IMG/VR virus record: IMGVR_UViG_3300045988_061465
Coordinates: 72,493-136,492 of that record
DNA: 64,000 bases
Source of the DNA: a virus
Strand: one strand, 5' to 3'
The translations under genes and the position numbers were made by a program. The notes beneath the pieces were generated by a model. The model ran no database searches, was not told the DNA's origin, and was given only the letters and a program-made list of their open reading frames with translations. This document shows, piece by piece, positions 5,356 through 63,652 of this stretch. Position 1 is the stretch's first letter; every line of letters starts with the position of its first letter.

Positions 5356-5830
5356 CTACAACATATTTTAAAATTTCGTAACTTTCTTCTAAGCCTGCTC
5401 TATCATCCAGTAAAATATTATAATAGGACTTTTTAGAATTTGGGAATAGTCTACTACTTGTAAAGGGAGGTATGATCATATCATTGATAAGATTCCCTAC
5501 CCTCATTTGAACACACTCCACTTGTTTCTCTATAATTTTATCTTCATCTTCTTCAGTGGAAAATAAAATCATTTCAAAACCTAGCATAGTACAATGTCTC
5601 AATAAGTTGACGACACAACTATAGTCTCCTCCATTATTATGGTAGTCAAAAATAGTGTTGTCATAATCGAAAGCGACTATTAGCTTTCCGTATTTCTTAT
5701 ACTCTTCTAATAGTCGCTTCTTGCAAGCCTCTTTTCCGAATGGATGGTTAAAACTTTCCATAAAGCCCTTCATTAATTCGCTGTCTAACTTCTTTAAGAG
5801 TGTATTCCTTCTTAAGAACACCGTCTTCAA
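5333..5830 (-). CDS. HAD-superfamily phosphatase-like protein
   Basis: LIVAFDYDNTIF matches HAD motif I (hhhhDxDxT). 165 aa. Overlaps the Prs-like and NAMPT-like genes. Confidence 0.4.
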   Translation of the reverse strand: MKTVFLRRNTLLKKLDSELMKGFMESFNHPFGKEACKKRLLEEYKKYGKLIVAFDYDNTIFDYHNNGGDYSCVVNLLRHCTMLGFEMILFSTEEDEDKIIEKQVECVQMRVGNLINDMIIPPFTSSRLFPNSKKSYYNILLDDRAGLEESYEILKYVVDEIIKLN

Positions 5831-7310
5831 ATACAGTTTCTAGACAACCTCCATCCTCTACTTCAGGAGTTACTTGGTCTTCAGCATAGTAGACACCATT
5901 GACATCCTGATATACTGCAATCAGACCTTTCAAAGAGTTCTTAGTTCCATCATCAGTCTTAGGATGTTTGAATATTTCTTTCAATTCTCCATTAATTACA
6001 CAAGCAGTAGCCTTAATTGCAAATCCTAAGCTATCTCTACTTGCATACTGATATGAAAATGAACCTACTCCTAGAACAAGATTGCAAGCTGCCATATGAG
6101 CGTTCTCAAGTCGCATATAGATTTGCTTCTGACGTTCAAGAGTAATAGAATCACCATACAACAAACCTATTTTCGTACTAGGATAACGATAATCCCTAGA
6201 AGTAGTATTCCAGCCGAATATTTTACCAAGCATATAATAAGCACCATAGTATTGACCTTCTGAAACTTCTACATACTCAGCATCATCGTTAAATGGGGCA
6301 TAGCAACAATAATACTTACCCTCTTTCATCCTAGTATGGAAGTGAGGATTAGTTCTTAAACCACAAATAATATCAACAGGGTCTCCGCTATCTGGACGAA
6401 TAACTACACGTCCATCACGAGCCATAATATCCTTCTTTAATTTGGGAAGGAAGTTTTCAATAACATTCCAGAAGTCCCAAGTATCAGAAACTATAGAAAC
6501 GAACCCAGATGGATACAATTCATTAATTAATCGCTTAAAGGTTTGAAGTTCATCCTCTTCTCCGCCAGCACACATTACAGAATGTTCTGTAGCTGGAACA
6601 GTAGCAGCAATTAATTCATTGTCAGAATTTGCACCATAATATTCTTCTAGAGCAGCAATAGCTGGAATGGTCTCACTTCCAACAAACGAAGTCATATGTG
6701 CCATACCAGAAATGATAGCAGCCTCTAAACCAGCCATTCCTCTCATAGAGAAGTCATGACACAAGAAATCCAGATTTACATCTTCTGGAAATCCGGTATG
6801 TACTGCGTGTCTTTTAAGTTCCTTCTTATAGAGTCTTGCTCTAGTAGCAGAGGTGCAAGGCATCCACAGAGTACAACTAATCAAAGTCTCTAGATAATTA
6901 GTTAACCAGAAGAACTCTGACTTTGTATTAGTAATAGTCATCATGGGAACTCTGATAGGGCATACTGAACCTTCTGGCAACGCTTTAATGCGAATAGGAA
7001 GGTAACCCAAATCATACAAGGCTTCAATATGTCTATACCCTACAGATTCAATTCCCACGAAGTTGTGAACTCTTCGATAAAACATTTCTACAGCTTTCTC
7101 TTTAGGCAACTCAAAGAAATTCTTGTTAAATTCGTCAATCAAATACTTTTTAATTAAATACTGGATTCCGAATACTACAGAACCTTCAGTGGCTTCTGGA
7201 AAGTATTTGTTGCTTCTGGGAGTCCAATTACTGTAAACTTGTTCAGTACCTTCTGGGTACATTCTGTGGTGGCCCAATTTATAGCCATCTGTTGCATTAA
7301 TTATTTCCAT
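5748..7310 (-). CDS. nicotinamide phosphoribosyltransferase-like (NadV/NAMPT or Namat)
   Basis: 520 aa. N-terminal ATDGYKLGHH is the hallmark NAMPT motif (TDSYKxxH family). Lies next to the Prs-like gene. Confidence 0.75.
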   Translation of the reverse strand: MEIINATDGYKLGHHRMYPEGTEQVYSNWTPRSNKYFPEATEGSVVFGIQYLIKKYLIDEFNKNFFELPKEKAVEMFYRRVHNFVGIESVGYRHIEALYDLGYLPIRIKALPEGSVCPIRVPMMTITNTKSEFFWLTNYLETLISCTLWMPCTSATRARLYKKELKRHAVHTGFPEDVNLDFLCHDFSMRGMAGLEAAIISGMAHMTSFVGSETIPAIAALEEYYGANSDNELIAATVPATEHSVMCAGGEEDELQTFKRLINELYPSGFVSIVSDTWDFWNVIENFLPKLKKDIMARDGRVVIRPDSGDPVDIICGLRTNPHFHTRMKEGKYYCCYAPFNDDAEYVEVSEGQYYGAYYMLGKIFGWNTTSRDYRYPSTKIGLLYGDSITLERQKQIYMRLENAHMAACNLVLGVGSFSYQYASRDSLGFAIKATACVINGELKEIFKHPKTDDGTKNSLKGLIAVYQDVNGVYYAEDQVTPEVEDGGCLETVFEDGVLKKEYTLKEVRQRINEGLYGKF

Positions 7311-20302: not shown

Positions 20303-20325
20303 ATAATTAATCTAATTAATAATAG

Positions 20326-20398
20326 ATCCCCCACTCGGATTCGAACCGAGGTCACAAGATTACAAATCTAGTGTTCTGACCAACTAAACTACAGGGGA
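20326..20398 (-). tRNA. tRNA-Thr (anticodon UGU)
   Basis: Acceptor TCCCCTG pairs with TGGGGGA (two G-U pairs). Anticodon loop TTTGTAA. T-arm CTCGGTTCGAATCCGAG. Confidence 0.65.
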
Positions 20399-20540
20399 AT
20401 ATAGTGGAGATTTCCACTATTTACTAATTCTAACCTCTGCGGGAATATACTCATTAGTAAAAGTTTCTAGGTTTTACTTCGGGAACCATTAACCTTGTGC
20501 TTACTGTCGGGGACCGCATCCGTATCCATCCAGAAGCCTT

Positions 20541-20578
20541 GCCGAGACTGGGGGATTCGAACCCCAACCTTCACAGTG
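20541..20578 (-). other. orphan tRNA 3' fragment (T-arm plus acceptor 3' strand) directly downstream of tRNA-Asp
   Basis: GGTTGGGGTTCGAATCCCCCAGTCTCGGCA has a T-arm and an acceptor 3' strand. No matching 5' half is present. Confidence 0.5.
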
Positions 20579-20650
20579 CCGAGAGTACCAGACTCGAACT
20601 GGTGACCTTCGCATAGACAGTGCGCTATTCTACCACTGAACTAACCCTCG
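20579..20650 (-). tRNA. tRNA-Asp (anticodon GUC)
   Basis: Acceptor CGAGGGT pairs with ACTCTCG. D-arm TAGTTCAGTGGTAGAATA is Asp-like. Anticodon loop CTGTCTA. Confidence 0.65.
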
Positions 20651-20661
20651 GTGTAACTGGA

Positions 20662-21213
20662 TTACTCCAGACCAATTAAACCCTTCTCTAACATAATATG
20701 GTGATTCGGACATAACCATACTAAATTATTCTCATTGTTAATCTCTTTAATAAGAGTGTCTTCGTCAAATTCTAATATTCCTTTAAGATGATGTACTTCA
20801 AGTATTGCATCAAATTCATGATTATGACAATATTGGCATACTTTCTCACGTTCGGAACTTTCTAATACTCTACGAGCATTAGTCCTTATTTCTTGACATT
20901 TAGATGATAAGTACTTCTGCCCAGATGTATAATAACCTAATGTTTTGTTACCAATTCCATTAAGTTCTTCCCAGCAACTACGACACATTTCTGAATCTTT
21001 ATGCTTAGGTTTACCACATCTAGGACATATCTTGTTTTCATCGTGCTTTATCCTACCTCTATTATTGTAAGAAGCAGCACACGAATGACTACAAAACTGT
21101 TTCTTCCTCACATCTGCGACCCTCTGATTATCTAGTACTTCGATTACCTTACCACATTCCTTACAGTGGTTAGGATTCTCATAATACAATTTAAGAGATT
21201 GTTCTCGATTCAC
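20662..21213 (-). CDS. HNH endonuclease with Cys-rich zinc-binding region
   Basis: CKECG...CPRCG...HHLKGILEFDED...NLVWLCPNHH is an HNH motif. Confidence 0.65.
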   Translation of the reverse strand: MNREQSLKLYYENPNHCKECGKVIEVLDNQRVADVRKKQFCSHSCAASYNNRGRIKHDENKICPRCGKPKHKDSEMCRSCWEELNGIGNKTLGYYTSGQKYLSSKCQEIRTNARRVLESSEREKVCQYCHNHEFDAILEVHHLKGILEFDEDTLIKEINNENNLVWLCPNHHIMLEKGLIGLE

Positions 21214-21277
21214 AGATAAGTTTAATTAATTTTAATGACAGTGTGATATGCAAGCCATTACACCACAGCCTCGATAT

Positions 21278-21481
21278 TTAATCCCAGTACCATATTTCTC
21301 TACTCATAGCAAATCTCATAGATACTTTTCCTTCTAACTTTTTAAACCATTTCTTATGTCTAAAGAATTGAAATCTACATTTTCCTTTACGACCTCCACA
21401 AACGTGGTATCTCCATCTTCTATTATGCGGATTTCTACCCATTTGTTTTCTAGTCATTTTCCATTTCTTTCCGTAACTCAT
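21278..21481 (-). CDS. small highly basic protein (67 aa)
   Basis: ORF track; Lys/Arg-rich. Confidence 0.35.
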   Translation of the reverse strand: MSYGKKWKMTRKQMGRNPHNRRWRYHVCGGRKGKCRFQFFRHKKWFKKLEGKVSMRFAMSREIWYWD

Positions 21482-21531
21482 AATATATCATTTAAGTAGG
21501 GCTAATCAGACTTGAACTGATAACCTCCACA

Positions 21532-22080
21532 TCATAGCGCAATTACTCCTGCGTGAATTTCTCTGTGACACCTACAACAGAGAAGTATACATTTATCTAC
21601 CTCTTTCTTTAAAAGTTCTATAGGTTTGTGCTACCCAGATAATGAGAAATCTTTCTCGCTTGGGTCGAGGTGATGAAAGTCTAATGCTTCATTACATCTA
21701 TTATAGCCGCATATCTAACACTTTCCACCTTTATACTCGACTAGTTCCTATTTTGTACGCTTTCTATATTCTTTAACGTTGTCGTAGCCAGTTTTAGGAG
21801 TTATCTTTTTGCTTACTATAACGTTTCGAAGTCTATTATAGGATATTCCAGAGAGTCTCGCAACCTCTTTTATGTTACCTATTTCGTCATACATTTTCTA
21901 AACTTCTATAATTTTCTCTGGAGTTAGCTCAACTATCTTTTGGCATAATCCAAATTCTTTACAGATATTAGAAACAGAACCTTTTCCAATAGACAATTCT
22001 TCAGATATTTTATCATAAGAATATCCATTTTCTCTAAGAACTTTTACTTGTTGTTTGATTTGTTCAGAAATTTTCTACAT
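21532..22080 (-). CDS. HTH plus HNH endonuclease-like protein with 5 in-frame TAG codons (TAG-containing gene inside the early region)
   Basis: Hand translation of the minus strand gives M[TAG]KISEQIKQQVKVLRENGYSYDKISEELSIGKGSVSNICKEF...CGYNRCNEALDFHHLDPSEKDFSLSG[TAG]HKPIELLKKEVDKCILLCCRCHREIHAGVIAL, ending at TGA. The HNH motif is intact only if TAG is read through. Confidence 0.6.
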
Positions 22081-22097
22081 ATTATTTACAGTATTAG

Positions 22098-22169
22098 TTG
22101 GGAAGGACAGAGTTGAACTGCCGTCTAGAAATTATCAGTTTCTTGTTCTAACCGTTAAACTACATCCCA
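22098..22169 (-). tRNA. tRNA-Ile (anticodon GAU)
   Basis: Acceptor TGGGATG pairs with CTTCCCA (one mismatch). Anticodon stem AGAAA/TTTCT with loop CTGATAA. T-arm GGCAGTTCAACTCTGTC. Confidence 0.6.
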
Positions 22170-22179
22170 ATATTATTGA

Positions 22180-22210
22180 TGTGGTGCTCTAACCAGTTGA
22201 GCTATAGCCC
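22180..22210 (-). other. orphan tRNA 5' fragment (acceptor plus D-arm only)
   Basis: GGGCTATAGCTCAACTGGTTAGAGCACC is a perfect acceptor 5' strand plus D-arm. No matching anticodon or T-arm or acceptor 3' strand follows. Confidence 0.45.
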
Positions 22211-22299
22211 TATTTCTCTTTGTATCACCATGCAAGTGCACATTTACAAGCGTCTTTATATCAGGACACTTCCCGTGCCAGGAATTGCTACAAAGAGTG

Positions 22300-22853
22300 T
22301 GGACCTAACGGGAGTCGAACCCGTGTCCAAACAACCCTTATTACAAGGATAACGTGCGTCTCATTTTTATTACATCAGCTAGTGAGTTCTAGCATTTAGA
22401 TAGTTTTACTAGATTTACTCTGAACTACACTATCGGAGTTCCAGAAACTAGTTTACAAACCACCAAACTGGGGCTGACCGAAGTCAACTCTCCACCACCT
22501 ACTTTTTAACGCTAAAATAGGAAAACGAGTGTTTGTGGTGAGTCAACCACGCAGGCACACATCCCTTCTGTTTAAAGACAACGGAGATTCAGTCTTACTA
22601 ACTCTTAGAGTGTTCTGATTAAAGATATACCACGGATTACCGTCCGCACGCCATTAGCGATATACCTAACCTCTTCTGTTTCTAGGTCTCTCCAGTAACC
22701 CGACTTGATTAATAGCGTCTATTAATAAGCCAGCAGCTTAGGCTGCCATTCTTACAGGTGCAATTTCTGCAGTTATTTGTTTTCGTCGTTTAAAGAGATT
22801 GCGCTCTACACGTCCTTATAATTTGTAATCGCCTGTCAAATCCAAGTAGGCCC
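22300..22853 (-). ncRNA. ssrA: tmRNA (SsrA), about 554 nt, candidate tag peptide AEIAPVRMAA
   Basis: 5' end GGGCCUACUUGGAUUUGACAGGCG (cf. E. coli GGGGCUGAUUCUGGAUUCGACGGG). 3' end GGACACGGGTTCGACTCCCGTTAGGTCCA forms a T-arm plus acceptor. Acceptor GGGCCTA/TAGGTCC gives a G3-U70 wobble and A73, the alanine identity elements. An internal mini-ORF reads GCA GAA ATT GCA CCT GTA AGA ATG GCA GCC TAA (plus coordinates 22738-22770). It is preceded by AAACAAAUAACU, resembling the E. coli resume context AAAAAAUAGUC. Confidence 0.7.
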
Positions 22854-23072
22854 ATATAAATAAAATAATTACTAGGTTCGTGTCTTTTTCACTGATTCCG
22901 CCACATTGAGGCTACCAATGTGTGTCCCTGGGCATTACTGTTTTCTTCAGCCAACTATGTAATTATTCTATTAGAGTTTACACTGTTTAAGTATTTCTCT
23001 AGTTATTATTCCATCACTAGCAAGAGAATTTAATTTCTCTAAATCAAATTCACTAGGATTGTTGTATTACAC

Positions 23073-23498
23073 TCATAACTTAGGAACATCAGAACGATTA
23101 TCATGATAACCTTCGTCTCCAACAAGTTGAGCCAGACAACCATGCATATAAGGAACAAGCTCAGGTTTCTCCTTATAACATCTGTATAGCATCCAACTCA
23201 TGCTCATGGAGTTTCCACTATGACCATTATCAAAGTATGGAAGTTTATCTTTAATAGCCTCAATCAGCTCAAACAAGCTAGGATATTTCTCATAGAAGGC
23301 TTTACATTCCTCCAGACTCATTTCTTTGAAATATTCAGCAAATGATAAAGCCTGTCTTATACAAGCCATTTCATAATCGAATAGGTCATTTTCTTCAAAT
23401 GTACCATCACTAGCTTCAACGAACAAACGATTGAAACGTTCAATTCTCTCCTGAAATTCTTTCGGAAGAGATTCCTTTGTAAGATTCTTGAAATCCAT
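23073..23498 (-). CDS. hypothetical protein (141 aa)
   Basis: ORF track. Confidence 0.5.
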   Translation of the reverse strand: MDFKNLTKESLPKEFQERIERFNRLFVEASDGTFEENDLFDYEMACIRQALSFAEYFKEMSLEECKAFYEKYPSLFELIEAIKDKLPYFDNGHSGNSMSMSWMLYRCYKEKPELVPYMHGCLAQLVGDEGYHDNRSDVPKL

Positions 23499-23529
23499 AA
23501 TCTAATTTTAATTGTTAAAAATAACTTAG

Positions 23530-23602
23530 TAGCGGGAGTCGGATTCGAACCGACGACCTTCAGGTTATGAGCCTGACTAGCTACCTCTGCTATCATCCCG
23601 CG
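23530..23602 (-). tRNA. initiator-type tRNA-Met (anticodon CAU)
   Basis: CGCGGGATGATAGCAGAGGTAGCTAGTCAGGCTCATAACCTGAAGGTCGTCGGTTCGAATCCGACTCCCGCTA closely parallels E. coli tRNA-fMet, including the unpaired 1-72 position (C1/T72). Confidence 0.7.
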
Positions 23603-23812
23603 ATATTACAAATGCTTTTTAATTAGTTTACAATGATTATACTCTCCTCCCCATCTAATAGGAAACTCTTTTTCCTTAGCCTCTTTATACTTCTCTGCCT
23701 GTTTCTTGTCTAAGAAGATTTGACAATCAGTTTCATAATTTTGAGGAGCGTTAGCTGGGTGATGATTTACTACAACTACATATACTTTCATAATTTTTTA
23801 AATAAAGTTTGT

Positions 23813-23884
23813 GGACACGCAGGGACTCGAACCCTATCTTCCGGTGTGCAAAACCAGCGCTCTAGCCATTTGAGCTAACGGCCC
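23813..23884 (-). tRNA. tRNA-Ala-like (anticodon UGC); acceptor stem pairs poorly, possible pseudogene
   Basis: D-arm TAGCTCAAATGGCTAGAGC. Anticodon stem CTGGT/ACCGG with loop TTTGCAC. T-loop GGTTCGAGTCC. The 5' strand GGGCCGT is not matched by the 3' strand CGTGTCC. Confidence 0.4.
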
Positions 23885-24979
23885 ATTTTTGGGATTTTCT
23901 TTTTAATTGGTGACATACCCATAAATTTCCACTGTTAAGATTCCACAACTTAACAATACCAGATAAGTTTTTTTGTTTGAATCATGTTCTAGTAGCATAA
24001 GTCCGCAACCATGCTACTCTCTCAGTTCATCGACTATCGGTTCTCGTGTCAGAAAAGGTCTTTATGATTCCGCAGGGACTGGCTTCAACTTAAACCCCGA
24101 ATGGATTTTTACCTTGCCAGGTCAGGATATTATTACGTTTCTAGCACTCTGAATTGATTTAGCCTGTTTAATCTTATAATCACGAACTACTTCTTTCATA
24201 TAAGAGTTAAATTCCTTCATGTCTTTCCATGAAATCTCATTAGCTAGTTTTGGAGTTTGAAACATTTTGTACTTTTCTAATAGGTCTTTCATTTCTCTCT
24301 TTAGTTTTCAAAGCGTTTTCACACGCTTGTTTCTTCATTACATATGGACAATCACAATTTCCATTGTAATACCAACAGCAATATTCACACTGATGCATAT
24401 ATTTAAATCATAAAAAGAAAGGCAAGGAGATGTCTTTCGACTGCCTTTCCGAACCATAACTATATAAATATATAACTATTACTACTCTCCTCAAAACCCT
24501 CCTAAGTTTCTCACAGTAACAATTTTAAGAATAGCGTAATGGGGATGCACATCATACGGAATTGTTACGTAACCGTATAGCTCAGTGCCGAGCTGCTAAT
24601 ACACACTTGCTTCCCTACAACTGTATTAGTTCCTTGTTTTTAGCTGAACAATAAAATTATCCAATCCAGTAACAAGCAAATCTGCTAAGCAATCATTTAA
24701 CGTCTATTACTTGAGACGAATAATTTATTACTGAAATTATTAACAGCGTAATCTTTCATTAGGTAAGTTTCTAATTCTTAATAAGCCCGATTTCTCGGTG
24801 GTAAACTCTTTACCAGTTAAAGACCTAACTAATGAATTACGATATGGATACTAGCCGTTTCTATTCCATTATTGCGTACTACGTTGCTAGCTAACGTCTT
24901 GGCTACTCTCTTCCTCACATCTGCCAAAAATTTGCTGGATTAATATTACCTACAAAGTAGGGAGGATTCAGCAAAAAGG

Positions 24980-25064
24980 CGTATGGTGCAGGATTCGAAC
25001 CTGCGATGGGATTTCTCACGGTGGGTTAACAGCCCACTGCCGTCGGCCACTTGGCTAACCATAC
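24980..25064 (-). tRNA. unusual tRNA with anticodon GUU (Asn-type) and a 16-nt variable region, discriminator G
   Basis: Acceptor GTATGGT/ACCATAC is perfect. Anticodon stem GTGGG/CCCAC with loop CTGTTAA. T-arm GCAGGTTCGAATCCTGC. Variable region CGTGAGAAATCCCATC. Confidence 0.55.
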
Positions 25065-25304: not shown

Positions 25305-25385
25305 TGTTGCGGAGGTAGGATTCGAACCGTTTATGACGATTTCTAGGTTATGAGCCTAGCGAGATGACCGCTTCTCTACTCCACG
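25305..25385 (-). tRNA. tRNA-like element with CAU anticodon arm; non-canonical T-arm, possible pseudo-tRNA
   Basis: Perfect anticodon arm CTAGG CTCATAA CCTAG and a GGTTCGAATCC T-loop. I could not pair the T-stem or acceptor stem canonically. Confidence 0.3.
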
Positions 25386-25596: not shown

Positions 25597-25601
25597 ATTT
25601 G

Positions 25602-25682
25602 TTCCGATTAAAGGATTTGAACCCCTGACCTCCCACCAATGCCTTATAGTTGTGGGCGCTCTGCCAACTGAGCTAAATCGGA
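25602..25682 (-). tRNA. tRNA with aberrant 15-nt anticodon loop (AACTATAAGGCATTG); pseudogene or non-canonical decoder
   Basis: Acceptor TCCGATT/AATCGGA, D-arm TAGCTCAGTTGGCAGAGC and T-arm AGGGGTTCAAATCCTTT are all canonical. Anticodon stem CCCAC/GTGGG encloses 15 nt instead of 7. Loop positions 3-5 read CTA. Confidence 0.4.
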
Positions 25683-31010: not shown

Positions 31011-32984
31011 TTACTTCACTTCTTCAAACTCAGTTGTTTCGGCTTTCTTCTCCTCCAACTCTTTCTTGCCAAGAATACTTTTCAGTGTATCAGCGAAAGG
31101 TATAGAGCGAAGCAAGTCGAACGCAGGATTCAAGTTCTCAGCAGTTTTAGCCATGAAGTTACCAGCGGTATTCTCGTTACCATAAACAGTAACCTGTCCA
31201 AGGTGAACGTGTTCAAACATCTGAGCAGATGCTTCTGCAATACCTGTCAACTGGTCAACTGTCTTATACTGAACCACCATTTCCGGAGTCAAGCCAGATT
31301 CAATCATCTTCTGGACTGCCAGAGCGGGAGCCATTTCAATAGCCTGGACTTTATCAGCCTCAGCCATTAAAGATGCTCTCTTACCCTCAGCTTCAGCAAG
31401 CAGTTTCTTTCTTGTACCTTCAGCTTCGGCTTCTAGCTGCAACTTTGTAGCATTTGCTTTAGCTTCTGCTTCTTTCAGAATTTCAGCAGCCTTGGCTTCT
31501 GCCTCAAGTACGGCTTTCTGCTTAACGGCTTCTGCCTCAATTGTGATACGTTCCTTCTCCTTTTGAGCGGGAACAATCGTCTCAGCATGAAGCTTAGCTT
31601 CCATAGCCAATGCAGCTGCTTCGTTTACTTCCAGTTGCTTTTCTTGCTTGGTTTTCTCGATAGTCATTTGAGCTTCTACCTTAGAAGTTCCTGCTACCTT
31701 TTCAGCTTCAGCCTTAGCTTTCTCGGCTTCTCCCTTAGCTTTAGAGACTTCAATTGTAGCATTTTGTTCTGCCACTCCTGCAATCTTATCAGCTTCGGCT
31801 GCCTTTACACGCTTGTCTGACTCATACTTAGCAACTGCAGCTTCCTGTTCGTTAATTGCCTTTTGCGTCTCAGCTTCCTGTTTTTGTTTAGCCTGAGCAA
31901 TACGAGTTTGTTTCTCTGCTTCTGCTTCTGCTTTCTTAGAGTCAGCTTCTGCTTTAGCCTTAGCTACATTAGCCTCAGCCAGTGATTCAGACTCTGCTCT
32001 ATTAGAATCGGCTTCTGCTTGAGCTTTAGCTATAGCTGAAATTTTCTCAGCTTCTGCTTTAGCTTTCTCCGATTCTGCTGCGGTATTAGCTTTAGCAATA
32101 TTGGCAGCTTGCTCAGCTTTCTGATTAGCAATACCTGATTGCTTATTCTTCTCAGCTTCTGCAAGTTTGATTTCTTTCTCCTGGTTAATCTCTGCCACAC
32201 GAACCTCTTGCTCTTGTCTAGTCTGAGCAACAGTAGTTTCACGCTCTTTCTCAGCGTCTGCTACAGCAATTTCACGTTGTTTGTTGGTTTCTGCAATCTG
32301 AATATCTCCTTTCTTCTTCTCTTCTGCAATGTCAGCCTGTGCCTGAGCAAGAGCTTTAGTTGCAGCTTTCTGACCTAGATTCTTGATATAGTTTGCATCA
32401 TCCGAAATATCAGCATTGTTAATGTTGATAATACTGAAACCTACCTTATTCAACTCGGTCTCAATATTCTCCTTAGCTTTGCCAATAAACTTGATTCTAT
32501 CAGCATTAATTTCCTCAATCGTCATTGTAGCCATTAAGCTTCTCACTTCACCAATGAGAATATCCTTGATTTGGTCTGAGATTTCAGAAGTTTTAGCTGT
32601 TAAGAATCTACTTGCAGCATTTTGCATTAATGTTTGAGTAGTTCCAATACCAGTGGTCAATGTTACAGGAATAGTTACCTTAATCATTTGACTGGAAACA
32701 CCAGTAACATTTACTTGAATTTGGATAGGTTTCAAGGACATTTTAGCCCAGTCTTGAATTACTGGCATTACGAATGTACCTCCACCATGAATGATTTTGG
32801 ACGGCAGAATAACTTCCTCCGACTTTCCAGTCTTCTCGTTAACTACCTTTTTCTTACCAGCCTTACCAAATACAACCAAGATTTCATCACTAGCACACTT
32901 ACGATACCGTGACAAAAGTCCAATAAAGGTTAAAACTACTAGCAATACAATAACACCTGCTACAATAAGAGTTTCTGTTGTCAT
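31011..32984 (-). CDS. flotillin-like SPFH-domain protein (YqiK family) with very long Ala/Glu/Lys coiled coil
   Basis: 657 aa. N-terminal transmembrane segment, then an SPFH core, then about 350 residues of AEAEK/AKAEAE repeats. Confidence 0.65.
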   Translation of the reverse strand: MTTETLIVAGVIVLLVVLTFIGLLSRYRKCASDEILVVFGKAGKKKVVNEKTGKSEEVILPSKIIHGGGTFVMPVIQDWAKMSLKPIQIQVNVTGVSSQMIKVTIPVTLTTGIGTTQTLMQNAASRFLTAKTSEISDQIKDILIGEVRSLMATMTIEEINADRIKFIGKAKENIETELNKVGFSIININNADISDDANYIKNLGQKAATKALAQAQADIAEEKKKGDIQIAETNKQREIAVADAEKERETTVAQTRQEQEVRVAEINQEKEIKLAEAEKNKQSGIANQKAEQAANIAKANTAAESEKAKAEAEKISAIAKAQAEADSNRAESESLAEANVAKAKAEADSKKAEAEAEKQTRIAQAKQKQEAETQKAINEQEAAVAKYESDKRVKAAEADKIAGVAEQNATIEVSKAKGEAEKAKAEAEKVAGTSKVEAQMTIEKTKQEKQLEVNEAAALAMEAKLHAETIVPAQKEKERITIEAEAVKQKAVLEAEAKAAEILKEAEAKANATKLQLEAEAEGTRKKLLAEAEGKRASLMAEADKVQAIEMAPALAVQKMIESGLTPEMVVQYKTVDQLTGIAEASAQMFEHVHLGQVTVYGNENTAGNFMAKTAENLNPAFDLLRSIPFADTLKSILGKKELEEKKAETTEFEEVK

Positions 32985-38568: not shown

Positions 38569-39528
38569 TTAAATCTTCTCTTCGGAAATAAGAGCATTAC
38601 CGCACGTTATTCTGTCAGCATCTTCTTCTTTAGACGGAACAAATACGATAACATCCCAACCTTCTTCAAGTAAAGGCTGTTCGAATTGACGATAAACATT
38701 ATAATCAGAGTAGCCAGTTACTTCAAAACCATTCTCAACTGCAGATGCAGTTTCATGAATAGGAGTTATTTTCACAATAAACTTCTCTTTATCGAAAAGT
38801 CTAGATAACTCCTTTGCATCCAGAATAGTCTGTGCAGTAACTGGGAAATTCAACGTATACTTTCTACCTTTTGGCATAGGTAAACGATTAGCCATTTCAG
38901 AAATAGTAGCTAATGAATGACTTTTGTTGTCAAATAGCTCTCTTCTCTGTTCATCATCAGTAGAATTTATTGAGAATTGAAGACCTGCCTCACCCCCGTA
39001 GAAATCATTCTTGATTCCACACCAAGTTTGTATGAAGTTCTCTAGTTTTCTATTAGCTCTAGGAAGCATAGTAGAAACTACTGGATGGACAGTCTTAGCT
39101 ATCAATCCACAACTCTTTACTACTTCTTTTAGAACAATCCCAAATGCTAGTACATTATCATTCCAAGTTGGCTCTCCCATTCTTGCGAAATGCACGTTGA
39201 ATCTGTCAGTATTCCTAACAGTTTCATTCTTGATAATGTTTCTTATTTGCCATTCCATCTCTTCAATAGAAGCGTTTCCATAGAATCCAAATTTCGGAAC
39301 ATCACAGAACTTGCATTTCATCGGACAACCTTTCTGGGTAGAAATGGTTGCAACCCACTTCTTACTAAGGTCAACTTCAGTATTAGCTACCCCATTAATC
39401 TCCTTAGTTAATCCTAGGAAATTAGCTTTGATGTTGTTCTCTTTCCCATAGTCTCCTACGGTTAGAAATTCAAGTTTATGTTCTGTATCAACATAAATCT
39501 TTCCTGTGTGAGTAAGTATTGTCTTCAT
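38569..39528 (-). CDS. radical SAM domain protein
   Basis: CPMKCKFCDV matches the CxxxCxxC radical-SAM cluster motif. 319 aa. Confidence 0.6.
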   Translation of the reverse strand: MKTILTHTGKIYVDTEHKLEFLTVGDYGKENNIKANFLGLTKEINGVANTEVDLSKKWVATISTQKGCPMKCKFCDVPKFGFYGNASIEEMEWQIRNIIKNETVRNTDRFNVHFARMGEPTWNDNVLAFGIVLKEVVKSCGLIAKTVHPVVSTMLPRANRKLENFIQTWCGIKNDFYGGEAGLQFSINSTDDEQRRELFDNKSHSLATISEMANRLPMPKGRKYTLNFPVTAQTILDAKELSRLFDKEKFIVKITPIHETASAVENGFEVTGYSDYNVYRQFEQPLLEEGWDVIVFVPSKEEDADRITCGNALISEEKI

Positions 39529-41274: not shown

Positions 41275-42301
41275 CACTATCAAAAGACCTTCCTGTGCCA
41301 CTCTCCTTTGAATTGTTTCACAACAATTACATAGTCTCTGGGCGTACTCATTATAGTCTCCAATAATACACAACAATAGTTCCCTACTCCGGACTTGAAC
41401 CAGAATCTTCTCCTTTAGAGGGAGATATACTGACTTGTACTAGTAGGGAAATACTCCACCTGCCTAAGCTCCTTATGGGAGCTGTAGGCTATCTAGAATA
41501 AGATGGAGAGTTATTTAGATAGTTTCCTATGCTATCTACGTTACCAACGTTCACTAAGAATATAGGTAGCTAATCCATATTCTTGCGACTGAGTTCGAGG
41601 TAGGAAATATACCCTTATGAGGTACCCTCTTATCAGCTAGCCTTATTTTAATCTAGCGGCTTATACTAGGCAACTTCTAAATAAATAAAATGCATAACTA
41701 TAAATGATATGCTTTGGTCTACTGGCATATCAGCAGTACTTCATAATATTGCTATAAGCGACCAACCCTATAGCTCAATCCTCTTGTAATAGTGTTTAAG
41801 TTTGCGAATATACACATTACAATCGTAGCAGTTATTTTCGGATATTTGGGCTATCTGCGTAACCCCGCTTTTGTTGCCTTAACAGGCTAAATGTTAGAGT
41901 AAATAATCATTTGTAGTATGAGTTATAAAACTCGTCCTACTGGCGATTTTTTGAAAACTGGAAAAAGTCGGAAAATTGGGTGCTGACGTTGTGGACAATT
42001 ATTCTCCTTACTCTCCATATTTTCACGTGAAACATACACGATTTTACTAGAAATGATAGTCTTTCCTATCAGCCAGACATAAAACTAAAACTACTACAAA
42101 AGTTAACTCGGTTTTTGATTTTTTTGTTTTGTTGTTGATTTCTCCGTTGACCAATGTTCCAATGATGGAGTTCATATGGGCATTTTATTTTAACTCATAA
42201 TACCTTAGAGCTGCACGTTTGACTTATTTTAAATCTCGTTGTGCGCTGAGATTACAATTAGATTCTGCCACTCTCACTTATTTATACACGAGAGAGTCGT
42301 G

Positions 42302-44821: not shown

Positions 44822-44893
44822 TGCCCTATGGTGTAATGGTTAGCACAGATGACTCTAAATCATTTAGTCTGGGTTCGAATCCTAGTAGGGCAA
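44822..44893 (+). tRNA. amber-suppressor tRNA-Gln (anticodon CUA)
   Basis: TGCCCTATGGTGTAATGGTTAGCACAGATGACTCTAAATCATTTAGTCTGGGTTCGAATCCTAGTAGGGCAA. Acceptor TGCCCTA/TAGGGCA is perfect. Anticodon stem GATGA/TCATT with loop CTCTAAA has U33, C34-U35-A36 and A37. It is a close paralogue of tRNA-Gln(UUG) at 30152-30223 and the only tRNA on the plus strand. Confidence 0.8.
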
Positions 44894-44911
44894 CGCCAAA
44901 AATTAATAGTT

Positions 44912-62428: not shown

Positions 62429-63652
62429 TTGAAACGTGTAGGATATTTGCACGAACGAGTGTATGATTTGAAAAACATCGAATTAGCTGATGATAAGGCT
62501 AGAAGAAATAAGTCAATTCGATGTGGTATTAAGTAGCATGATAAGAATAGATTAGAAGAAAATAAGGAATTATCAGACAAATTAAAATAGCTAATCTATT
62601 AGACTTCTGAATATAGTACATTTATAATATATGAGCCTAAAGAAAGATTAATCTTTAGACTTCCATATTACCCTGATAGAATCACTCATCACGCTATAAT
62701 GAATATTATGGAACCTATCTGGACCAGCATTTTTATAGATTAGACATATTCCTCTATAAGAAATAGAGGGATTCATAAGGTAGAGTGTGATTTATTCAAG
62801 GTATTGTAGAAATACCCAGATGAAACTAAATACTGCCTAAAAATGGATATAAGAAAATTTTATCCATCTATAACACATGACATCCTGTATGAGATGTTGT
62901 AGAAGAAAATAAAGGATAAGAAACTGTTAAGTCTATTGAAGGAAATAATATATTCAGCCAAAGGAGTTCCTATTGGGAACTATCTATCATAGTTCTTTGC
63001 AAATTTATATCTGACATATTTTGACCACTGGATAAAAGAGGAGTTAAAATGTAAGTACTACTTTCGATATGCTGACGATATTGTGATTCTTGGTAATGAC
63101 AAGAATTATTTGAGAAATGTATTAGTATCTATAAAACTGTATTTAAAACAAGTTCTTAATTTAGAATTAAAACCTAACTACTAGATATTTCCAGTAGAAA
63201 GTAGAGGAGTAGATTTTGTAGGCTACAAATTTTACCACACTCACGTTCTATTAAGAAAATCTATAAAAATGAGAATGTTTAAGCTTATAAATCTATATAA
63301 GCAAAATAAGATTGATAGAGAAGAATTGGAAAGAAGAATGAGATCTTATTTCGGATGGATGAAATTCTGTAATTCTAAGAATTTGTTGAAAAAGATAGAA
63401 ACTTTGACTGGTTTGAAGTTCTCAAATTGGAATGGAAAGGAAGTCAATATATCTAAGTTTTATAATAAATATATTCACATTATAGAGGTAGTTGATTATC
63501 ATAGCCATTTTAGAGTGCACTTTATGTATAACAACAAACCCTATTATTTTAAAAGCAAGAATAAGAAATTACATTATTCTTTGATTAGATACAAATTTCC
63601 TATAAATTTTAAAGTAACACCTTATGTTAGAACCGAATAGAATACAAACTGA
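62429..63652 (+). CDS. DGR reverse transcriptase, 9 in-frame TAG codons
   Basis: Hand translation contains TFIIYEPKERLIFRLPYYPDRITHHAIMNIMEPIW (RT motifs 1-2), MDIRKFYPSITHDIL (motif 3), GVPIGNYLS[TAG]FFANLYL (motif 4, where the DGR-RT-conserved Q of the SQ dipeptide is encoded by TAG), YFRYADDIVILGND (motif 5 YADD) and FVGYKFYHTHVLLRKSIKMR (thumb). Start is TTG at 62429 or GTG at 62459. Ends at TGA. ORF-track 63269..63640 is its C-terminal piece. Confidence 0.8.

Follow-up and report, generated by a model that had tools for sequence, protein, structure and literature searches.

Transfer-messenger RNA (tmRNA) genes carried by phages are a known class. They have been described in huge phages (PMC7162821), in phage G, whose tmRNA measures 308 nucleotides (nt) (PMC12484599), in Melnitz and the pelagimyophages, which possess a two-piece ssrA that is "common but not defining" in Melnitz-like phages (PMC9004378), and in mycobacteriophages, including the DS6A tmRNA that lacks a coding sequence (CDS) (PMC11915505). 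A census found them in about 2.3% of phage genomes (PMC9004378). Here we report a complete, one-piece tmRNA gene of 554 nt on the minus strand (positions 22300-22853) of a 64,000-nt stretch of the virus record IMGVR_UViG_3300045988_061465, a stretch that we refer to in its full length as the window. Like the reported phage tmRNAs, which usually reside among many phage tRNAs, it is a virus-borne ssrA that is accessory in its group, and the candidate roles proposed for those RNAs, sustaining translation or tagging host proteins, may apply to it as well. The reported genes are of ordinary or short length and were found by ARAGORN, whereas the clade to which the window gene belongs is about 1.5 times as long as normal and invisible to this program. 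In contrast to the Melnitz ssrA the window gene is not permuted, and no riboswitch was detected inside it; in contrast to DS6A, it has kept a full tag. What is new is consequently not phage tmRNA as a class, but a long-form clade with a distinctive tag in abundant gut phages. We consider it probable that the gene is a genuine, selectively maintained ssrA of a crAss-like (Zeta-type) gut phage of about 190 kb that boosts ribosome rescue in an accessory capacity.

Numbered from G1 (position 22853) to the discriminator A73, the RNA starts with GGGCCUACUUGGAUUUGACAGG and finishes with …GGACACGGGUUCGACUCCCGUUAGGUCCA. Its two ends close a tRNA-like domain: the 5' acceptor strand GGGCCUA (RNA 1-7; 22847-22853) pairs with the 3' strand UAGGUCC (22307-22301) over seven base pairs (G1-C72, G2-C71, G3·U70, C4-G69, C5-G68, U6-A67 and A7-U66). 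The T-arm, ACGGG-UUCGACU-CCCGU at 22324-22308, has an uninterrupted loop, and together with the 3' acceptor strand and A73 (22300) it makes up the segment 22300-22324, which is supported both by folding and by the alignment to the Rfam tmRNA model RF00023. This model matches 22297-22853 from end to end (model positions 1-374) with 73 bits, against a gathering score of 47, and an E-value of 1.9e-26. No rival family was returned by a permissive Rfam search of the region; the model for permuted two-piece tmRNAs (RF04321) reached 23.9 bits against its gathering score of 47, and the gene is colinear and in one piece. Judged by this alignment, by its homologues and by ARAGORN on shortened constructs, the region encodes a genuine phage tmRNA equipped with the alanine identity elements G3·U70 and A73, through which it is predicted to be charged. 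An earlier sequence-only reading of this DNA had pointed to the acceptor stem with its G3-U70 pair, to A73, to the T-arm and to a tmRNA consensus at the 5' end; all of these are present on the minus strand, the RF00023 alignment beginning at model position 1, and the Rfam search that it proposed gave the match above the gathering score just described. The ARAGORN run that it also proposed had a mixed outcome, as no tmRNA is called on the intact gene. After deletion of 100 nt from the middle in silico a tmRNA is called, and when at least 150 nt are removed the reported tag is exactly AEIAPVRMAA*. Length is therefore what causes the miss, and two algorithms concur in the ends and the tag.

The tag frame occupies RNA 84-116 (22738-22770). 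It runs from the resume codon GCA (22770-22768) through ten codons to the stop codon UAA (22740-22738), and its sequence, GCA GAA AUU GCA CCU GUA AGA AUG GCA GCC UAA, specifies AEIAPVRMAA, the mini-ORF with an Ala-Ala end that the sequence-only reading had spotted. The context upstream of it, AACAAAUAACU|GCA, is aligned with high posterior probability to the A-rich tract and resume-codon region of the Rfam model. Helix 5, the hairpin GCAGC-CUAA-GCUGC (RNA 108-121; 22733-22746), holds the stop codon in its loop; it was recovered by RNAalifold and is 100% paired in the 54 long-form genes. In the clade as a whole, tags of 9-10 codons combine eight different N-terminal halves, all in frame (AEIAP-, ATYSE-, AAYSE-, ANTS-, ATTS-, AERSD-, GNTE- and ANNE-), with one and the same ending, VRMAA. 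RNA structure may account for part of this conservation, since the 5' strand of helix 5 is made up of the VRMAA codons. In the set of virus-associated tmRNAs used for comparison the common endings are …ALAA and …AVAA; other endings in -MAA do occur (ANNFATDMAA, …ELAMAA), so that the ending is unusual, not unique. Ten codons is the commonest tag length (PMC11915505). The tag can thus be called non-canonical on account of its VRMAA end, although only mildly so, given its common length and usual Ala-Ala end.

Standard RF00023 tmRNAs share with the window gene the tRNA-like domain closed by the two ends, G3·U70 and A73, a long helix 2, GGAC before the T-arm, the 5' GGAUUUGAC motif, an A-rich resume context followed by GCA, a 10-codon tag ending in Ala-Ala and a stop codon in the loop of helix 5. 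They differ from it in their length, about 300-450 nt against 515-598 nt in the clade, and in an acceptor stem that usually starts with GGGG in place of GGGC; the VRMAA tag, the location in a phage tRNA array and the lack of an encoded 3' CCA (ACAC comes after the acceptor stem) further set the window gene apart.

Covariation lends independent support to this architecture in helix 2, which played no role in the selection of the sequences. Its 5' strand (RNA 19-46; 22808-22835) pairs with RNA 497-526 (22328-22357) in three segments, 19-27/518-526, 33-41/505-513 and 42-46/497-501, a pairing found by folding as well. Compensatory changes affect 11 of the 17 pairs in the first two of these segments, which are 97-100% canonical in the 54 long-form genes; the segment 19-27/518-526 contributes six of eight pairs (97.4% canonical) and 33-41/505-513 five of nine (100%). 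A hairpin, AGAG-CGCAAU-CUCU (RNA 47-60; 22794-22807), stands at the position of pseudoknot 1 (PK1) in the RNAalifold consensus. Among 22 more closely related genes, no variation touches this hairpin, helix 2 or the tRNA-like domain, while several helices of the middle domain show compensatory changes; 50 doubly changed cells were counted against 17.4 expected, a value reached in none of 500 shuffles and biased in favour of the structure, which was derived from the same 22-gene alignment.

The extra length of the gene resides in an expanded middle domain of about 375 nt (RNA 122-496; 22358-22732), where typical tmRNAs spend about 180-200 nt on pseudoknots PK2-PK4. Here, the RF00023 alignment requires insertions of 101 and 156 nt. 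The domain consists of conserved sequence islands between variable hairpins and indels, with compensatory changes in the helices 128-134/140-146, 390-397/448-455 and 402-406/442-446. Outside the clade, 34 full-length virus-associated tmRNAs were sampled through a motif peculiar to tmRNA, GGAC immediately preceding the T-arm. Their lengths range over 300-445 nt, the median being about 352, and the window gene is hence some 200 nt longer, just as the sequence-only reading had estimated. Genes of the tmRNA_intron type likewise exceed the standard length, and Zeta-type phages are reported to be rich in introns (PMC7886860). In those genes a group I intron sits in the TΨC loop, the sole known site of tmRNA introns (PMC11915505), whereas this loop is intact in the window gene and the additional sequence follows helix 5 and precedes the 3' strand of helix 2. 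An intron or a single insertion was accordingly rejected as the source of the extra length: besides the intact T-loop, there is no internal open reading frame (ORF), and length differences within the clade are made up of many small indels spread over many sites, not of one block. No intron family, group I included, matched the gene at E ≤ 1, and the middle domain matched no other Rfam family. Two further attempts concerned the pseudoknots of this domain. An all-versus-all helix search on a MAFFT alignment gave mostly chance, G·U-rich matches, because the variable middle was aligned without structure, and folding by subgroups yielded plausible local hairpins and no defensible PK2-PK4 architecture.

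A large extra domain could change interactions with the ribosome and with SmpB, and the strictly kept C-terminal pentapeptide is unlike the common …ALAA and …AVAA endings. Both features would be in keeping with an RNA that modulates host trans-translation by competing for alanyl-tRNA synthetase (AlaRS), SmpB and stalled ribosomes, with a different tag by which rescued products would evade, or be diverted from, the tag-specific proteolysis of the host, or alternatively by dampening host rescue. The CDS-less DS6A tmRNA indeed inhibits endogenous tmRNA upon its expression in E. coli (PMC11915505). However, the complete tag frame, the Ala-Ala end and the stop codon of the window gene argue for productive tagging over competition, and we regard a modulator of this kind as rather improbable.

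Homologues of the window gene were collected from IMG/VR by exact-match scans, in which its 3' end was found on 34 contigs and the invariant 5' end on 33, and by a scan with the tag core GTAAGAATGGCAGC…GCTG, which returned 83 loci, about eight of them chance matches in high-GC coding DNA. Structural extraction, for which a T-arm and a fully complementary acceptor stem were required, left at least 55 distinct genes on 67 viral loci or contigs. All but one are 515-598 nt long; the exception is a short form of 311 nt (L218). G3·U70 and A73 are invariant in all 55 genes despite seven variants of the acceptor stem and 11 of the T-stem; the complementarity of these two stems was a selection criterion and provides no independent evidence. 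In 25 relatives with flanking sequence, identity to the window amounts to 96-98% in the functional ends, to 64% in the middle and to about 33-36% in the flanks. Most carriers are viral contigs of 100-192 kb from a human-gut dataset that resemble the Zeta crAss-like group, and on them the homologues lie in tRNA arrays with a preserved same-strand order of tRNA-Met, tmRNA, tRNA-Ile and tRNA-Asp. The tRNA-Ile(GAU) gene directly downstream of the tmRNA (22097-22169, minus strand) is a conserved neighbour, 7-127 nt away in most relatives. As the gene is kept on 67 viral contigs with covariation, the sequence comparison marks it as real and selectively constrained, far beyond chance. Among GenBank phage records, two unannotated fragments alone match the gene. 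One subgroup (L356 8725-9322, minus strand, and similar genes in L347, L357 and L349) carries a divergent 5' end, GGGCCAUACAUGGAAUUGAUUCAUGAUGAC….

This conservation bears directly on whether the gene might be a non-functional relic, that is a decaying host ssrA or a fragment of a prophage attachment site. Integration often takes place at tmRNA genes, and prophages can carry pieces of ssrA (PMC9004378); the window gene also does not encode CCA and is dispensable in some relatives. Yet nothing of it is truncated: both ends, helix 2 and the tag are preserved, 54 diverged genes maintain the helices through compensatory substitutions, and conservation is far higher in the functional parts than in the flanks. 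Furthermore, the gene sits within the tRNA array of a crAss-like genome that looks lytic, the window showed no integrase, and no special similarity connects it with tmRNAs of the GENNYALAA type. A relic is thus highly improbable.

The same comparison speaks to the origin of the gene. The sequence-only reading had suggested checking it for capture from the host, an idea that found no support. To a 393-nt tmRNA with the tag GENNYALAA, which we take to be the Bacteroides type, the window gene shows about 63% identity over the conserved ends, no closer than to unrelated tmRNAs. Its closest relative outside the long-form clade is again a phage gene, the short form L218 (IMGVR_UViG_3300010163_001427), whose tag is ANNEVRMAA. 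From this pattern of relatedness, a phage tmRNA lineage seems likelier than recent capture from a host. A scan of bacterial sequences for the T-arm and acceptor was uninformative on this question: about 109 of the 124 matches listed are ordinary tRNAs, and none has a tmRNA-like 5' end. L218 shares with the window gene a tag core of 20 identical nucleotides, GAAGUAAGAAUGGCAGCCUA, as well as helix 5 and the position at the head of a tRNA cluster, and it scores 112 bits as a tmRNA. It differs in being about 245 nt shorter and detected by ARAGORN, in its acceptor strand (GGGGAUG) and in its UAG stop codon. The two genes align solely at the tag core, in the region of the T-arm and at a single weak anchor of 8 nt, so that the expansion is not placeable relative to the short form.

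The length of these genes shapes how annotation tools treat them. ARAGORN called only three of the first 34 loci, the shortest ones at 515-518 nt and each with a spurious tag, missed the other 31, and called none of 19 further loci; of the 34 other virus-associated tmRNAs, it called all but the 445-nt one. In Rfam searches most long forms score 55-82 bits, lower than the short form, and the gene of L356 (598 nt) falls with 26.9 bits under the gathering score of 47, so that it would also escape Rfam annotation at default settings. Pharokka, the huge-phage surveys and the other phage surveys that we consulted all rely on ARAGORN to call tmRNAs, and the clade is likely absent from surveys that build on it.

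The genome in which the window gene resides is that of a phage that recodes TAG. The window has a GC content of about 35% and contains 28 tRNA genes. Genes for the large terminase, portal, a tail protein and a reverse transcriptase are found on the plus strand from about 49 kb onward, and plus-strand genes between 49 and 64 kb each contain 2-35 in-frame TAGs and are sensible only if TAG stands for an amino acid. The minus-strand block from 1 to 42 kb, which holds the tmRNA and 26 of the tRNAs, has long ORFs free of in-frame TAG, and its genes stop with TAA in 34 cases, TGA in seven and TAG in two (2 of 43). Two suppressor tRNA(CUA) genes are present, one on the minus strand (41379-41449) and one on the plus strand (44822-44894). 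The sequence-only reading was therefore right in taking TAG to be reassigned, and late genes are those affected. The genetic code is split by strand, with one suppressor gene per strand flanking the strand switch. When compared with crAss-like phages of Bacteroides, Azobacteroides and Flavobacterium, the terminase shows 26-29% identity; with proteins in unannotated phage records from human faeces, identity rises to 42-45%. The Zeta crAss-like group defined by Yutin et al. comprises genomes of 145-192 kb that recode TAG→Gln or TGA→Trp in their late genes, have numerous tRNAs, suppressors among them, and are rich in introns (PMC7886860), and by its sequence the window phage fits this group. That study makes no mention of tmRNA, transfer-messenger or ribosome rescue, nor does tmRNA appear in a preprint on stop-codon recoding.

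We envisage that the tmRNA and the phage tRNA cluster are transcribed together from the minus-strand block, which uses the standard code and is presumably an early or middle one; its fixed same-strand place in the array, with the tRNA-Ile gene as near as 7 nt, suggests co-transcription and processing of the tRNA type. The RNA would be trimmed like a tRNA and receive its CCA post-transcriptionally, and the alanyl-tRNA synthetase of the host would charge it with alanine by virtue of G3·U70 and A73. Together with host SmpB, it would enter ribosomes that are stalled without a usable codon in the A-site. Translation would then resume at GCA, add (A)AEIAPVRMAA and terminate at UAA, whereby the ribosome would be freed and the product tagged with Ala-Ala at its end. 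The likeliest benefit would be extra rescue capacity during infection, when demand should rise as host mRNAs are degraded and suppressor tRNAs push ribosomes through TAG to the ends of mRNAs. A scan for sigma-70 promoters and intrinsic terminators stayed at chance level, the terminator-like matches being solely hairpins of the tmRNA itself.

Several observations weigh against such an accessory ribosome-rescue function. PK1, the most important pseudoknot of E. coli tmRNA, appears to be reduced to a hairpin; a second stem is not evident, and the Rfam alignment marks the modelled stem as non-canonical. The middle domain is structured and has some covarying helices, but these were not matched to canonical PK2-PK4. 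The Rfam score of 73 bits is modest; with older models, scores above 140 bits alone were counted as strong (PMC11915505). SmpB was not found by tblastn in the window and 531 kb of family loci, a search made with an approximate E. coli probe on partly covered genomes. Finally, with a tRNA-Ala-like gene about 1 kb upstream as an anchor that is independent of the tmRNA, 38 contigs were retrieved, and at least six of these relatives have lost the tmRNA. Any benefit is therefore conditional.

These losses took different forms. In four of the relatives (L159, L161, L169 and L172) a 3.2-kb block is missing relative to window positions 20325-23602, between flanks that are 76-98% identical. The breakpoints fall inside tRNA-Met and tRNA-Thr, and lost with the block are the tmRNA, ORF141, the tRNA-Ile and tRNA-Asp genes and the intervening ORFs. 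In L157 the tmRNA alone is missing. L022 (6680-6752) has a chimera in which the final 26 nt of the tmRNA are joined to the tRNA-Ala-like gene, consistent with a deletion between the two T-loops. Rfam found no tmRNA in any of these six loci. To judge from these junctions, the tRNA array appears to be remodelled by recombination between adjacent tRNA genes at their conserved T-arms. The anchor gene itself (23812-23884, minus strand) resembles tRNA-Ala(UGC), scores 39.5 bits with the Rfam tRNA model and is not called by ARAGORN. As parsed here, three mismatches come after the first four acceptor pairs (G1-C72, G2-C71, G3·U70 and C4-G69), and the RNA folded by itself gives no cloverleaf. Nevertheless, 20 related loci carry the full gene with 100% identity to the window, and the 38 contigs have exact copies of its first 31 nt; a canonical tRNA-Ala was not called in the window. 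It could be a minihelix-like RNA recognised by AlaRS, an oddly structured tRNA or something else.

Of particular relevance for the link to recoding, four contigs (_056969, _065173, _048622 and _065177), three of them 186-193 kb in size, have neither end of the tmRNA anywhere and yet keep an anticodon arm identical to that of the second suppressor tRNA (44822-44894), which served as the probe. As at least four sister contigs thus keep the suppressor without the tmRNA, the tmRNA is accessory and not required for the suppressor-tRNA lifestyle.

A mechanistic connection between the tmRNA and TAG recoding is nonetheless plausible from what is known of both. tmRNA acts on ribosomes that are stalled with an empty A site or at the 3' end of an mRNA; products terminated at TAG by RF1 are released normally and are not tmRNA substrates. 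The suggestion of the sequence-only reading that the tmRNA clears products of premature TAG termination consequently does not fit. Its broader idea of UAG stalls is defensible for ribosomes that read through TAG or stall at an unserved UAG, although not as an obligatory role. Non-stop complexes that arise when suppressor tRNAs drive readthrough past stop codons are handled by tmRNA (Ueda 2002, cited in PMC3985003), and tmRNA resolves stalls at unserved UAG codons in RF1-free E. coli (PMC6207430).

In a stricter version of this connection, the tmRNA would be needed because UAG is reassigned and would clear UAG stalls and products before the suppressor accumulates. The TAG recoding of the late window genes with its two tRNA(CUA) genes, the location of a tRNA(CUA) gene no more than a few kb from the tmRNA at four further long-form loci, and the resolution of UAG stalls in RF1-free cells noted above would all suit such a dedicated helper of the code switch. 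The stop codons of the tags do so as well: among the 47 long-form genes tabulated, 44 end their tag with TAA, three with TGA and none with TAG, whereas the tag of the short form L218 stops with TAG, in a region that reads TAG as stop. This contrast fits adaptation to UAG suppression, although it is a hint only, because one short-form gene and related sequences underlie it. L218 at the same time counts against the helper, since a homologue with the same VRMAA core in a TAG-as-stop region means that the clade predates TAG recoding or is independent of it. The sister contigs that keep the suppressor arm without both tmRNA ends point in the same direction, RF1-terminated products are no substrates, and tagging of late proteins paused at UAG would hurt the phage. 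We consequently judge an obligate helper of the code switch to be unlikely.

About as doubtful, in our assessment, is a phage-specialised trans-translation device whose VRMAA tag and extra domain of about 200 nt are adapted to the suppressor-tRNA lifestyle. In one version, such a device would mark host UAG-readthrough proteins for destruction and spare the late proteins of the phage; in another, its extra domain would sense or regulate when rescue is allowed. The repeated loss of the gene would then reflect host-dependent costs.

Other RNAs and genes in these genomes deserve mention in their own right. A twister-P1-like ribozyme match (L330 4090-4154; 51.6 bits, below the gathering score of 67.2, E 1.3e-8) ends 40 nt upstream of the 5' end of the tmRNA, L337 has another twister-like match, and RAGATH-34 RNAs above the gathering score occur about 2 kb or less from the tmRNA in L356 and L337 (the matches in these two loci are at L356 7097-7194 and at L337 9604-9704 and 3210-3280). 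Self-cleaving RNAs may help to process tRNA/tmRNA arrays. In the window, a RAGATH-14 RNA (41505-41678, minus strand) scores 166.7 bits against a gathering score of 149.1 and precedes the same-strand suppressor tRNA at 41379-41449 by 55 nt; its location suggests a structured RNA that is linked to this suppressor tRNA and may take part in processing or regulation. Three odd tRNA calls, a tRNA-Ser with the anticodon ACU, an 80-nt tRNA-Met (Rfam 37.6 bits) and an 87-nt tRNA-Asn, are located at 25601-25682, 25306-25385 and 24978-25064 (all minus strand) and may contain insertions or be non-standard. The reverse transcriptase gene (62429-63652, plus strand; PHROG 1423, E 2.8e-112) has nine in-frame TAGs and adjoins the tail-protein gene; it may be part of a diversity-generating retroelement in the recoded late region. 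Auxiliary genes of the early block lie at 5748-7310, 31011-32984 and 38569-39528 (all minus strand). The first encodes a nicotinamide phosphoribosyltransferase (PHROG 448, E 3.5e-182), and the other products are a 657-amino-acid protein in which an SPFH/Band 7 domain is recognised (Pfam E 1.3e-19) and one whose similarity to radical-SAM proteins is weak and below the Pfam cut-off.

Zeta-type phages account for 13-18% of the crAss-like reads in the human gut (PMC7886860), and a conserved ribosome-rescue RNA in these abundant phages had not previously been reported in the literature that we searched. As ARAGORN and, for one subgroup, the Rfam gathering score pass over the clade, censuses of phage tmRNAs probably count too few of them in large gut phages. 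At the same time, the existence of sister phages with and without the tmRNA that share the suppressor tRNA, together with a short-form homologue, makes the link between recoding and ribosome rescue directly testable.

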